Assembly (NCBI RefSeq): GCF_003334355.1
Contig: NZ_QOWP01000070.1
Direction: 5' to 3' (one strand)
DNA: 3,518 bases
Source: Escherichia coli
Lineage (GTDB): Bacteria; Pseudomonadota; Gammaproteobacteria; Enterobacterales; Enterobacteriaceae
The notes beneath the pieces are model-generated. The model was not told the origin of the DNA and made no database searches. It saw only the letters and a program-made list of their open reading frames with translations. The position numbers and the translations under genes were made by a program. Shown here piece after piece: positions 1-3,518 of the stretch; position 1 is the first letter of the stretch, and the number at the start of each line of letters is the position of its first letter.

Positions 1-37
1 ATGCTTCCATCGGAAACGATGATCTGGCAGCCTGAGT

Positions 38-631
38 TCACAGATAAAACACTCTCCAGGAAACCCGGGGCGGTTCACGATGTTCAATAAAAGCATACCG
101 GACGACGGCATCGCCATAAATTTGTGCCTGGTGGACAATACGCGAGGCGCTAACCCTTGCGCGATCATAAATTTGTAGCAGGAGTTGATGGTCGGGCGTT
201 AAGCCTTGTGCGGCGACGATCATAGAATGTTGATCAATTAAGGCGTGACCAAATATTCTACATTGCCCGTAAACTAATGAGTCATGAATGGTGACACTGT
301 CACTTATATATGCACCCTGGCTGATTTCACTATTATCGATCCAGACATTATCCGTTGCGTGAACCTCTCCCCACAGCACGCTGGTGCCGGTGATACGCGT
401 ATTACCGGAAATCACCGTTCCGCCGAACGCAATAGCATTCTGGTCGTAAATCCAGCAATTTCCTTCCTGTGCTAACACCGTTTCGCGATCGATCCAGCCG
501 CCAGCGGTTCCTGCTATCACATCGTTAAAATCGCTAATGGCGATAATCTGCCGTAATAACACACTTTTTTTAGTGCCATCTTCCTGATAACTAAAGGCTC
601 GCTGTTCTTCACTTAGACGATATTTGCGCAT
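38..631 (-). CDS. ydcK: YdcK-like hexapeptide-repeat (left-handed beta-helix) acyl/acetyltransferase-family protein; 197-aa ORF, probably a frameshift-truncated copy of a longer gene (possible pseudogene)
   Basis: Minus-strand ORF from the track (ATG is the complement of 629-631, TGA the complement of 38-40). The translation is full of [LIV]-G-x-x-[STAV]-x type repeats ([46 protein letters not shown]). It is divergent from tehA, as ydcK is in E. coli. A second minus-strand frame stays open from about position 74 to the window edge and still looks repeat-like ([23 protein letters not shown]). Confidence 0.6.
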
Positions 632-754
632 AGCGTTTTCCCACAGGTGACTTACTATAACCGTAGCAAATTCTGCGGCTCTGGCTATGCTCGAGAAAAT
701 TCCATAAAATGCATTTCAAATATACTTTATAAATTAAACAAAATGAGTAAGAAG
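632..754. promoter_or_regulatory. Divergent intergenic region between ydcK and tehA; expected to hold both promoters. Only weak -10-like hexamers are visible (TATACT 721-726, TAAAAT 705-710) with no convincing -35 partner.
   Basis: 123-bp non-coding gap between two divergently oriented start codons. The box assignments are by eye only. Confidence 0.3.
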
Positions 755-1747
755 ATGCAGAGCGATAAAGTGCTCAATTTGCCGGCAGGCTACTTTGGTA
801 TTGTGTTGGGGACGATAGGGATGGGATTTGCCTGGCGCTATGCCAGCCAGGTTTGGCAGGTCAGCCACTGGTTAGGGGATGGGCTGGTGATTCTGGCGAT
901 GATCATCTGGGGATTATTAACTAGCGCATTTATTACCCGACTCATACGCTTTCCGCATAGCGTGCTGGCGGAAGTTCGCCATCCAGTGCTGAGCAGTTTT
1001 GTGAGTTTGTTTCCGGCAACGACGATGCTGGTGGCGATTGGTTTTGTTCCGTGGTTTCGCCCACTGGCGGTGTGCCTGTTCAGTTTTGGTGTCGTGGTTC
1101 AGTTGGCTTATGCCGCCTGGCAAACTGCGGGATTATGGCGCGGATCTCACCCTGAAGAAGCTACCACGCCTGGACTGTATCTGCCGACAGTTGCCAACAA
1201 CTTTATCAGCGCAATGGCCTGTGGTGCGTTGGGCTACACCGACGCCGGTCTGGTGTTTTTAGGCGCAGGCGTTTTCTCATGGCTAAGCCTTGAACCGGTG
1301 ATCTTGCAGCGTCTGCGCAGTTCGGGAGAATTACCCACGGCACTGCGGACATCACTCGGCATTCAGCTCGCTCCTGCGCTGGTGGCCTGTAGTGCCTGGC
1401 TGAGCGTCAACGGCGGCGAGGGTGACACGCTGGCGAAAATGCTTTTCGGTTATGGACTGCTGCAACTGCTGTTTATGCTACGTCTGATGCCATGGTATCT
1501 CTCCCAGCCATTTAATGCTTCATTCTGGAGTTTCTCGTTCGGCGTATCTGCACTGGCAACCACCGGTTTGCATCTGGGGAGTGGCAGCGATAATGGATTT
1601 TTCCATACGCTGGCGGTGCCGCTGTTTATCTTTACCAATTTTATTATTGCAATACTGCTCATCCGTACTTTTGCGCTTCTGATGCAGGGAAAATTGTTAG
1701 TCAGAACCGAGCGCGCCGTTTTAATGAAAGCAGAGGACAAAGAATGA
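755..1747 (+). CDS. tehA: Tellurite resistance protein TehA; TDT-family inner-membrane anion transporter, homologue of plant SLAC1 channels
   Basis: Long plus ORF (track 647..1747) encoding a strongly hydrophobic multi-pass membrane protein that I recognise as TehA. Start placed at ATG 755 ([19 protein letters not shown]...), which gives 330 aa and has a purine-rich GAGTAAGAAG just upstream. In-frame ATG 743 and GTG 647 are alternatives. The TGA stop at 1745-1747 overlaps the tehB ATG. Confidence 0.9.
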
Positions 1748-2337
1748 TCATTCGTGACGAAAACTATTTTACTGATAAATATGAATTAACCCGCACACAC
1801 TCTGAAGTACTGGAAGCGGTGAAAGTGGTTAAACCGGGTAAAACGCTGGATCTGGGCTGTGGCAATGGTCGTAACAGTCTTTACCTGGCAGCCAATGGTT
1901 ATGATGTTGACGCATGGGATAAAAATGCCATGAGTATCGCCAACGTCGAGCGCATTAAATCTATTGAAAATCTGGATAATTTACACACTCGGGTCGTTGA
2001 TCTGAATAACCTCACATTTGCTGGACAGTACGATTTTATTCTTTCGACTGTGGTGCTGATGTTCCTTGAGGCTAAAACCATCCCAGGGCTGATTGCCAAT
2101 ATGCAACGTTGCACGAAACCTGGCGGTTACAACCTGATTGTGGCGGCGATGGATAGCGCTGATTATCCATGTACCGTCGGCTTCCCGTTTGCCTTCAAAG
2201 AGAGAGAATTACGTCGATATTACGAAGGCTGGGAGATGGTGAAATACAATGAAGACGTCGGCGAGCTGCACCGCACCGACGCCAACGGTAATCGTATTAA
2301 ACTGCGTTTCGCCACGATGCTGGCACGTAAAAAATGA
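1744..2337 (+). CDS. tehB: Tellurite resistance protein TehB; class I SAM-dependent methyltransferase
   Basis: 197-aa ORF. SAM-binding motif I LDLGCGNG at 1846-1869 ([17 protein letters not shown]). The overall sequence matches what I know as E. coli TehB. Its start overlaps the tehA stop in ATGA (1744-1747), and AGAGGA lies about 10 nt upstream inside tehA. Confidence 0.95.
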
Positions 2338-2343
2338 CCCGGT

Positions 2344-2398
2344 AAGAACAAAGCGCGTGAAAATTCCCCACGCTGAGATGGTTTACTGTTCTTCTTTT
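2344..2398 (+). terminator. Weak candidate stem-loop with T-tract downstream of tehB
   Basis: AAGAACA (2344-2350) pairs with TGTTCTT (2387-2393), enclosing an inner GCGTG/CACGC stem (2355-2359 with 2369-2373), followed by CTTTT (2394-2398). The outer stem is AT-rich and the loop large, so this is not a canonical intrinsic terminator. Confidence 0.2.
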
Positions 2399-2497
2399 CG
2401 GTAAGCATATTTTTTATCGAAGGGATGTGAAATTAATCACAGTAGTCGAAGTTTTTTAGCAGCTTAACTAACTGAAATTTAACTACTGATGATTGAC

Positions 2498-2543
2498 TTA
2501 GCCCCTTTTTCGGCATTGACTATGTCGTCTGAAAAGGGGCTAA
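2498..2543. repeat. Perfect 12-bp inverted repeat (TTAGCCCCTTTT / AAAAGGGGCTAA) separated by 22 nt, in the tehB-ydcL spacer
   Basis: Arms 2498-2509 and 2532-2543 are exact reverse complements. The 7-mer ATTGACT occurs as a direct repeat at 2492-2498 and 2515-2521, the second copy inside the loop. An A6 run follows, not a T-run. Confidence 0.5.
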
Positions 2544-2594
2544 AAAATTTATTTTCACCAACACTTTTTTTGCCACAACACGAAGCGGCGCTTT

Positions 2595-2631
2595 TTGCTA
2601 TAACTTAAAAAGTAATATAATCATCTCAGGA
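2595..2631 (+). promoter_or_regulatory. Candidate ydcL promoter and ribosome-binding site: -35-like TTGCTA (2595-2600), consensus -10 TATAAT (2616-2621), Shine-Dalgarno AGGA (2628-2631) 8 nt before the ATG
   Basis: Exact TATAAT hexamer 19 nt upstream of the ydcL start, and AGGA at canonical spacing. The -35 match is weak and the spacer is only 15 bp, so the promoter call is tentative; the RBS is solid. Confidence 0.3.
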
Positions 2632-2639
2632 AACTATTC

Positions 2640-3308
2640 ATGCGTACCACATCATTTGCGAAAGTTGCAGCTTTATGCGGCTTATTGGCTCTGTCTGGTT
2701 GTGCCTCTAAAATCACCCAGCCAGATAAATATTCTGGTTTTTTAAACAATTACTCTGATTTAAAAGAAACAACCTCGGCTACAGGTAAACCTGTTTTACG
2801 TTGGGTAGACCCGAGTTTTGATCAAAGCAAATATGACAGCATCGTCTGGAACCCAATCACTTATTATCCGGTACCGAAACCGTCGACCCAGGTAGGGCAG
2901 AAAGTTCTGGATAAAATTTTGAACTATACCAACACCGAAATGAAAGAAGCGATAGCGCAGCGTAAACCACTGGTTACCACCGCTGGGCCGCGTAGTCTGA
3001 TTTTCCGTGGGGCCATTACCGGTGTAGATACCAGCAAAGAAGGGCTGCAATTCTATGAAGTGGTTCCTGTTGCATTAGTGGTTGCGGGGACGCAAATGGC
3101 TACAGGCCACCGTACCATGGATACTCGCCTCTATTTTGAAGGTGAGCTGATTGATGCAGCGACTAATAAACCGGTTATCAAAGTCGTTCGTCAGGGCGAA
3201 GGTAAAGACCTGAATAACGAAAGTACGCCAATGGCTTTCGAAAATATTAAACAAGTTATTGATGACATGGCGACCGATGCCACCATGTTTGACGTTAACA
3301 AAAAGTAG
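2640..3308 (+). CDS. ydcL: Lipoprotein YdcL (DUF3313-type, function unknown); probable outer-membrane lipoprotein
   Basis: 222-aa ORF. The N-terminus MRTTSFAKVAALCGLLALSGCAS is a signal peptide with lipobox L-S-G-C (2691-2702); Ala at +2 predicts Lol sorting to the outer membrane. Good SD, TAG stop at 3306-3308. Confidence 0.9.
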   Translation: MRTTSFAKVAALCGLLALSGCASKITQPDKYSGFLNNYSDLKETTSATGKPVLRWVDPSFDQSKYDSIVWNPITYYPVPKPSTQVGQKVLDKILNYTNTEMKEAIAQRKPLVTTAGPRSLIFRGAITGVDTSKEGLQFYEVVPVALVVAGTQMATGHRTMDTRLYFEGELIDAATNKPVIKVVRQGEGKDLNNESTPMAFENIKQVIDDMATDATMFDVNKK

Positions 3309-3316
3309 TTCCAGAC

Positions 3317-3341
3317 GCGCCATCGTTAGATGGCGCTTTTT
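3317..3341 (+). terminator. Rho-independent terminator downstream of ydcL
   Basis: Perfect 8-bp stem GCGCCATC (3317-3324) with GATGGCGC (3329-3336), 4-nt loop GTTA, then TTTTT (3337-3341). It starts 9 nt after the ydcL stop. Confidence 0.6.
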
Positions 3342-3518
3342 ATCCGGTGCGCCGTAAAACCCCATCCTTCAGGGCGGGGATATAAGGCGCGGTTTTCCAC
3401 CTGACCAGGTGTTTGCTGTTGTTCAATGTATTGGCGGATGACGGATATTGGCGCACCTCCGCAGCTACTGGCAAAATAGCCAGGACTCCACAAAACGCCT
3501 TTGTAGTAATACCTGACT
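3326..3518 (-). CDS. tnpA: IS200/IS605-family transposase TnpA (Y1 HUH tyrosine transposase), C-terminal fragment; gene continues beyond the 3' edge of the window
   Basis: Minus-strand frame open from the window edge to TAA (complement of 3326-3328). It translates to VRYYYKGVLWSPGYFASSCGGAPISVIRQYIEQQQTPGQVENRALYPRPEGWGFTAHRIKSAI*. The stretch LWSPGYFASSCGGAPISVIRQYIEQQQ matches the conserved C-terminal helix of IS200/IS605 TnpA that carries the catalytic tyrosine, as I recall it from IS608 TnpA (not an aligned comparison). The ORF track omits it because no start codon lies within the window. Confidence 0.6.
   Translation of the reverse strand, partial: VRYYYKGVLWSPGYFASSCGGAPISVIRQYIEQQQTPGQVENRALYPRPEGWGFTAHRIKSAI
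3344..3518 (-). mobile_element. End of an IS200/IS605-family insertion sequence (IS609-like), partial; exact junction with the chromosome uncertain, roughly 3309-3349
   Basis: Contains the TnpA C-terminus and an adjacent imperfect palindrome. A TTTAT pentanucleotide sits at 3339-3343; this family inserts 3' of short AT-rich target motifs. An IS609 copy downstream of ydcL is known in E. coli K-12. Confidence 0.4.
3349..3390. repeat. Imperfect palindrome: 19-nt arms (3349-3367 and 3372-3390) with a 4-nt loop; candidate subterminal hairpin of the IS200/IS605-family element
   Basis: Pairing the arms gives 14 Watson-Crick pairs plus one G-T, with mismatches spread through the stem. IS200/IS605 ends carry imperfect subterminal hairpins of this kind, recognised by TnpA. 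It overlaps the last codons of tnpA. Confidence 0.4.

Follow-up and report, generated by a model that had tools for sequence, protein, structure and literature searches.

What kind of protein does ydcL encode, what might it do in the Escherichia coli envelope, and does the insertion sequence (IS) end beside it matter for the gene? The window, by which we mean the whole 3,518-nucleotide stretch of DNA that was analysed, is a piece of the E. coli chromosome for which near-identical RefSeq records show five annotated features, among them the ydcL gene that the initial annotation had already called by that name. These features and the IS end with its target site are as follows.

Ending at 631, minus strand: 5' part of ydcK (RefSeq)
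755–1747: tehA (RefSeq)
1744–2337: tehB (RefSeq)
2640–3308, plus strand: ydcL coding sequence, 222 amino acids, ATG start and TAG stop at 3306–3308 (open reading frame list and RefSeq)
3340–3343, plus strand: TTAT, the target tetranucleotide directly 5' of the IS left end (filled versus empty site)
3344–3518, minus strand: left end of a 1748-bp IS200/IS605-family element of the IS609 type, running off the window (RefSeq and junctions)
Minus strand, with its 3' part within that left end: IS200/IS605-family tnpA pseudogene (RefSeq)

The YdcL translation is identical to RefSeq WP_001261013.1, a "DUF3313 domain-containing protein", and to the product of ydcL in locus L002. The ydcL-bearing block is present at a coverage of at least 80% in 5405 of 5426 complete E. 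coli genomes and therefore belongs to the core genome. ydcL is a real, already annotated core gene from a known family of uncharacterised function, its description here is accurate but ordinary, and nothing in its sequence is unusual for a lipoprotein of such a kind. Over window positions 78–3518 the sole difference from strain PSS-12 is at 2812 (C in the window, T in PSS-12), which makes YdcL residue 58 a Pro, as in the common allele WP_001261013.1, and a Leu in PSS-12. Upstream, two in-frame ATGs of tehA lie near each other (743 and 755), of which RefSeq takes 755 as the start, and the stop of tehA overlaps the tehB start in ATGA (1744–1747), an arrangement typical of translational coupling.

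Elements that could serve the expression of ydcL were read from the sequence around the gene, where no in-frame start lies 5' of 2640 (the open reading frame was taken from the first start codon after a stop).

2616–2621, plus strand: candidate -10 element, a perfect TATAAT
2628–2632, plus strand: putative Shine-Dalgarno-like AGGAA, 7 nt before the ATG
3317–3341, plus strand: intrinsic-terminator-like hairpin, GCGCCATC-GTTA-GATGGCGC, then TTTTT

The putative -10 element has a weak -35 counterpart, TTTGCT/TTGCTA at about 2594–2600, and a consensus scan found no full sigma-70 promoter 5' of ydcL, its sole plus-strand match being inside the open reading frame. Genomic SELEX placed an RpoS-holoenzyme binding peak within the tehB-ydcL spacer (PMC5493296). 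An Rfam scan of the whole window at E values up to 1 returned one chance snoRNA match and no known RNA in the 302-bp spacer. The spacer also holds a perfect 12-nt inverted repeat at 2498–2543 (TTAGCCCCTTTT / AAAAGGGGCTAA) with a 22-nt loop and no Rfam match, which might terminate tehB transcription or bind a protein.

The position of ydcL behind tehAB invites the idea that YdcL, TehA, and TehB form one functional unit in tellurite resistance, dicarboxylate export, and methylation. The tehA-tehB-ydcL order found in E. coli is kept, on one strand and with a spacer of 140 bp, in a relative whose YdcL is 74% identical (L020), and a Citrobacter entry bears the title [quoted passage not shown]. Against such a unit, the E. 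coli spacer carries the inverted repeat with its 12-bp arms, the TATAAT proper to ydcL and the RpoS-binding site, and the adjacency is gone in a 45%-identity homologue, which lies beside genes for a GGDEF protein and a Crp-like regulator, and in every homologue that is more distant still. The conserved tehAB-ydcL neighbourhood is limited to close enterics; this restriction and the spacer features fit inherited synteny better than a functional operon. Co-function with TehAB was rejected as the main idea on account of that restriction, and we regard it as highly improbable.

On its other side, ydcL is convergent with ydcO, and in strains with an empty site (for example, matches H34–H39) ydcL runs straight into ydcO, with the hairpin at 3317–3341 between the two genes. 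In the window an IS end intervenes, as had been claimed for this locus: in a search with window positions 3200–3518, other IS copies match from 3339 on, and the match to empty-site strains stops at 3343, beyond which those strains go on into ydcO. The empty-site junction reads ...GATGGCGCTTTTTAT|TATCGGTTTCTG... (...TTTTTAT|TATCGG...), the filled junction in the window reads ...TTTTTAT|CCGGTGCGCC... (TTTTTAT|CCGGTG), and the far junction of a filled strain reads ...GGATGTCAA|TATCGGTTTCTG... (GTCAA|TATCGG), so that the element inserted 3' of TTAT without target duplication. RefSeq annotates in it insQ/tnpB and a divergent tnpA (Y1 transposase) pseudogene, which has an internal stop. The window contains a subterminal hairpin, CCCC-ATCCTTCAGGGC-GGGG, as well as the tnpA pseudogene's 3' portion (...LWSPGYFASSCGGAPISVIRQYIEQQ), and the subterminal hairpins at both IS ends have a common loop, TCCTTCAGGGCG. 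Insertion at TTAT without duplication and subterminal hairpins are hallmarks of the IS200/IS605 family and place the element there; it resembles IS609-type members in its tnpA/tnpB layout, its TTAT insertion, and its hairpins, and differs in that tnpA is here a pseudogene.

The initial annotation had further suggested that the expression context of ydcL may differ between strains with and without the insertion. The polymorphism itself stands, the junction being as in the window in 3267 of 5426 complete E. coli genomes. An effect on ydcL was rejected: the element lies 35 nt 3' of the ydcL stop codon, beyond an intact hairpin and T-run (3317–3341) that is identical in IS-filled and empty-site strains, and promoter, coding sequence, and terminator are unchanged. 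What the insertion alters instead is the end of ydcO, since the insertion point falls within its TAA stop (T|TA; window 3343|3344; L002 3144–3149; L001 11011–11019), and ydcO of filled strains therefore gains one Tyr codon before a TGA from the IS right end. The IS609-type element is thus a polymorphic passenger that leaves ydcL intact. In strain Y5 and similar strains, a nested IS3-family element interrupts the tnpA pseudogene 3' of ydcL (L023 4748–6567), which explains the two-piece matches of "100% coverage" (H1–H4). A separate IS3-family element, IS1203-like, contributes its terminal part as window positions 1–77, 100% identical to many copies, and abuts ydcK sequence at 78. With this end at 77|78, ydcK is interrupted in the source strain and its frame ends at the stop at 38–40; none of the 5426 complete E. 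coli genomes covers at least 80% of window 1–140, across the IS3/ydcK junction. The tehAB-ydcL block of the source strain therefore sits between two unrelated IS ends.

The protein itself was examined for export signals, domains, and conserved positions, which are given here with the coordinates of their codons.

2640–2699, plus strand: predicted signal peptide, residues 1–20, with R2 and K8 in the n-region and the h-region AALCGLLAL (hydropathy and pattern match)
2691–2702, plus strand: lipobox L-S-G-C, bases CTGTCTGGTTGT
2727–3278, plus strand: DUF3313 domain, residues 30–213 (Pfam PF11769)
2730–2762, plus strand: N-terminal motif Y-S-G-F-L-x-D/N-Y-S-x-L, residues 31–41 (alignment)
3051–3107, plus strand: hydrophobic Ala/Gly-rich segment FYEVVPVALVVAGTQMATG, residues 138–156 (sequence, model, and alignment)
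3138–3155, plus strand: codons of E167 (3138–3140) and of the 96% conserved D172 (3153–3155) (alignment)

The N-terminus, MRTTSFAKVAALCGLLALSGC, combines two basic residues with an uncharged hydrophobic core and fits a PROSITE PS51257-style lipobox pattern; the criterion used was a charged n-region, an uncharged h-region, and [LVI]-[ASTVI]-[GAS]-C within the first ~35 residues, all of which YdcL has. A signal peptidase II site is predicted accordingly, Cys21 being encoded at 2700–2702 and followed by Ala at +2 (GCC, 2703–2705) and Ser at +3. The signal peptide and LSGC lipobox proposed from the sequence are borne out by homology: among 99 full-length homologues with 24–73% identity, the lipobox Cys is kept in 84, and the site is therefore not a chance match. 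The other 15 have ordinary AxA-type signal peptides in its place, so that the family is always exported and usually lipid-anchored; as these 15 are predicted to be soluble periplasmic proteins, the lipid anchor would be dispensable for the function of the family. A proteome paper on O157:H7 likewise lists YdcL as a lipoprotein with the predicted site "LSGC21A" (PMC3210124).

From the Ala at +2 an outer-membrane location had been proposed, and the evidence concurs. The +2 residue of the 84 lipobox homologues is A in 48, S in 16, T in 10, G in 6, V in 3, and H in 1, and in none is it Asp, the Lol-avoidance signal. YdcL has been found among E. coli outer-membrane vesicle proteins (PMC10673343), and in Shigella flexneri GMMA it makes up 0.035% of mass in the class "OM lipo" (PMC4820968). 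The lack of a +2 Asp and this published presence in vesicles and GMMA are what is expected of a Lol-sorted outer-membrane lipoprotein, and they support YdcL as a lipoprotein of the outer membrane, its lipidation and the side of the membrane on which it resides being predictions. The mature protein, counted from Cys21, has about 202 amino acids and a mass of 22.4 kDa.

DUF3313 accounts for nearly the whole mature protein. Pfam PF11769 matches with an E value of 4.8e-63 and 212.8 bits over model positions 1–186 of 187, and E. coli YdcL (b1431) is a named member of the family, from which it shows no difference. All 99 aligned homologues match DUF3313 alone in Pfam, and the NCBIfam scan of YdcL produced noise only (E values of at least 0.07, far below the cut-offs). 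A phmmer search of 1.84 billion cluster representatives (50% identity clusters) retrieved 810 relatives at E ≤ 0.001, 334 of them at E ≤ 1e-10. The named matches in AlphaFold DB come from Enterobacterales, Pseudomonas, Azotobacter, Bordetella, and marine gammaproteobacteria, and all are named DUF3313 or "lipoprotein"; no paper giving DUF3313 a function was found in the literature searched.

Conservation across the 99-sequence alignment is concentrated in a few places. E167 is invariant, and G33, L35, Y38, L41, Y65, P77, A125, T127, P143, and D172 are at least 90% conserved; no other polar residues of the family are as conserved as E167 and D172. The motif YSGFLxDYSxL starts about 10 residues past the lipid anchor, with a median distance of 11 residues from the Cys to G33. 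A hydrophobic Ala/Gly-rich stretch is present family-wide over residues 141–156 (P143 is 99% conserved), and the candidates for the role of segment 138–156 are a buried core, an oligomer interface, or a membrane contact.

To see whether genomic context points to a partner, about 12 DUF3313 neighbourhoods were examined. The distant DUF3313 genes adjoin OsmC in one case and ppk in another, precede a DUF1254/DUF1214 protein, ecotin, or DUF2846 in others, and in a further one have a PqiC-family gene and a DUF2092 gene as neighbours. The sole operon-like context that we met is on a metagenomic contig (L009, 917–7292), where a TetR gene and the DUF3313 gene share 4 nt at the end of the former, and the latter is followed on the same strand by genes for a 269-amino acid protein with no assigned identity, a sulfatase, two PqiA-domain proteins, and an MlaD-domain (PqiB-like) protein. 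The neighbours are often exported proteins, and no recurring partner gene appeared across the 12 single-protein contig look-ups.

The AlphaFold2 model of YdcL, built from the 99-sequence alignment, has a mean pLDDT of 92.6 and a pTM of 0.84. Its order is three short strands, a long helix (87–106), a long strand (119–133), a hydrophobic helix (143–155), two long strands (160–172 and 177–187), and a C-terminal helix (201–216); segment 138–156 thereby holds the helices 138–141 and 143–155. The structural matches to this model, with their scores, are as follows.

PelC: 9.6 and 9.5
TraT decamer: 9.5
Flagellar LPHT-ring protein: 9.2
HpaA: 8.9
LpoB: 8.5
PqiC: 8.2
CsgG: 8.2
DUF330 (XCC0632): 7.7
LptE: 7.4

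Sequence identity between YdcL and these proteins is 4–13%. Foldseek concurs, with PelC at an E value of 1e-5, and against AFDB50 it returned DUF3313 proteins only and no functional lead. A PDB profile search with the 99 DUF3313 sequences at E values up to 10 gave noise only (best E 0.24) and none of PelC, TraT, and CsgG. The confident model thus predicts for YdcL an alpha/beta architecture common to non-catalytic outer-membrane lipoproteins, outside all their sequence families. The initial annotation saw no recognisable catalytic motif in the mature protein and named a clear enzymatic fold as what would speak against its reading; NCBIfam found nothing, Pfam found only DUF3313, the model resembles non-enzymatic envelope lipoproteins, and no clear enzymatic fold emerged from the structural comparisons. 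With neither a catalytic family nor a catalytic fold, an enzyme reading of YdcL was rejected.

In a rival reading, YdcL, like PelC, TraT, or CsgG, would assemble into a ring of ten to twelve protomers under or in the outer membrane, in which segment 138–156 would be the oligomer interface or a membrane-dipping element. Such a ring would either work with a channel of the outer membrane or serve as a shield for the surface. PelC is the outer-membrane lipoprotein of the Pel exopolysaccharide exporter and forms a dodecameric ring, but its identity to YdcL is 6–13% with no profile match, YdcL is about 50–70 residues longer, and neither a pel operon nor pelB lies beside a DUF3313 gene at any locus examined. 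TraT, the IncF surface-exclusion lipoprotein, is a surface-exposed decamer with three amphipathic membrane helices that form an alpha-helical barrel in the outer membrane, and it has in addition an extracellular ring domain (PMC11733297). YdcL, in contrast, is chromosomal and core, and its model has one short hydrophobic helix (143–155) with two amphipathic flanking helices predicted to pack on the sheet; three membrane helices and a sequence match to TraT are lacking in it, as are tra genes nearby. The confident monomer model folds the segment as a 13-residue helix, too short to span a membrane. YdcL has neither sequence nor profile similarity to PelC, TraT, or CsgG, csg genes are absent from its surroundings as well, and LptE, LpoB, and PqiC have the same fold without such rings. 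We therefore consider a ring of this type unlikely.

In the E. coli outer membrane, the lipoproteins LptE, LpoB, and PqiC assist LptD, PBP1B, and PqiB, respectively, as partners without catalysis of their own. All three lipoproteins belong to sequence families other than that of YdcL, each is encoded separately in E. coli, and YdcL has neither the sequence family nor the LptD partnership of LptE. LpoB reaches its partner via a long disordered linker, whereas the linker of YdcL is only about 10 residues. PqiC offers a more specific model, in which YdcL would be an accessory of lipid trafficking that binds hydrophobic cargo or docks a periplasm-spanning transporter. Such a context was found in only two of about 12 distinct neighbourhoods, with pqiAB-like genes on the same strand in one, and E. 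coli ydcL is far from the pqi, mla, and let genes. PqiC is already present in E. coli, YdcL has no sequence similarity to PF03886 (PqiC / ABC_trans_aux), and none of the 99 DUF3313 members matches that family. A PqiC-like role appears very unlikely on these grounds.

Phenotypes of ydcL come from genome-wide screens. In two reports (PMC3112155, PMC5828445), the Keio ydcL mutant is reported to be thermosensitive at 47 °C, is suppressed by Mg2+, and groups with pal, tolQR, bamB, nlpI, and LPS-core mutants. Deletion of rob under butanol lowers ydcL mRNA to 13% (PMC7537768), a cysB mutant whose proteome resembles that of oxidative stress shows a 2-fold rise in YdcL protein (PMC6761508), and ydcL was a candidate fitness gene in a transposon screen of uropathogenic E. 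coli in bacteraemia (PMC3855560). Selection with phage T7 enriched ydcL I105K, to 100% on Earth and 33.9% in microgravity, alongside changes in hldE, galU, lptA, and mlaA (PMC12798971).

That last study presents ydcL as a transcription factor for slow-growing persisters and cites papers on ydcI in support. We reject the statement that ydcL is a transcription factor: the references concern ydcI, and in the strains compared, which are other than BL21, residue 105 is Ile in YdcL (codon 2952–2954) and Val in the YdcI of a closely related strain, so that I105K fits the lipoprotein and not the regulator. The co-enrichment of I105K with hldE, galU, lptA, and mlaA fits an outer-membrane role. The variant could also be a pre-existing hitchhiker, because the identical change arose in both T7 arms. 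A bolder view holds that DUF3313/YdcL is a previously unrecognised ring-forming lipoprotein of the PelC/TraT class that acts in LPS or outer-membrane lipid homeostasis and affects T7 susceptibility, which we judge quite unlikely; if it were true, an alteration of YdcL such as I105K would change the surface enough to lower T7 infection, and the T7-selected "ydcL" mutation would be the first direct phenotype for DUF3313.

The reading that we prefer, to which we assign a probability of roughly 0.55, is that YdcL is a small envelope lipoprotein, delivered by the Lol system, that acts as a non-catalytic binding or scaffolding factor for outer-membrane integrity. Its Sec-type signal peptide, ending in LSGC, would export the precursor, and processing by Lgt, LspA, and Lnt, following the established pathway, would leave the mature protein triacylated at Cys21. 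The Lol system would then carry it to the inner leaflet of the outer membrane, as the Lol pathway and the "+2 rule" suggest; TraT and HpaA, two top fold matches, are surface-exposed or surface-associated, which counts against this inner-leaflet placing. A tether of ~10 residues would keep the single globular domain near the membrane surface, where, to judge from the tether and the fold class, YdcL might bind or scaffold an envelope component, be it a protein, a glycolipid, or a polymer, probably through the conserved aromatic and acidic residues Y38, W55, Y65, E167, and D172. Its contribution, going by the screens, may be to outer-membrane integrity under stress, a role suggested by the 47 °C/Mg2+ phenotype, the Rob dependence, the RpoS-holoenzyme peak, and the T7-selected I105K. 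Weighing against the preferred reading, 15 of the 99 homologues are predicted to lack the lipid anchor, and the widely varying DUF3313 neighbourhoods yield no partner.

Databases already record the gene, the family, and the lipoprotein nature of the product, and the finding matters little as it stands. YdcL is one of the uncharacterised core E. coli lipoproteins and thus a small gap in the parts list of the envelope. Scattered screens converge on the outer membrane, in the Mg2+-rescued heat sensitivity, the dependence on Rob, and the selection of I105K by T7, and the predicted fold would place DUF3313 in a class of non-catalytic envelope lipoproteins that resemble PelC, TraT, and LptE, which narrows the functions to seek for this family.
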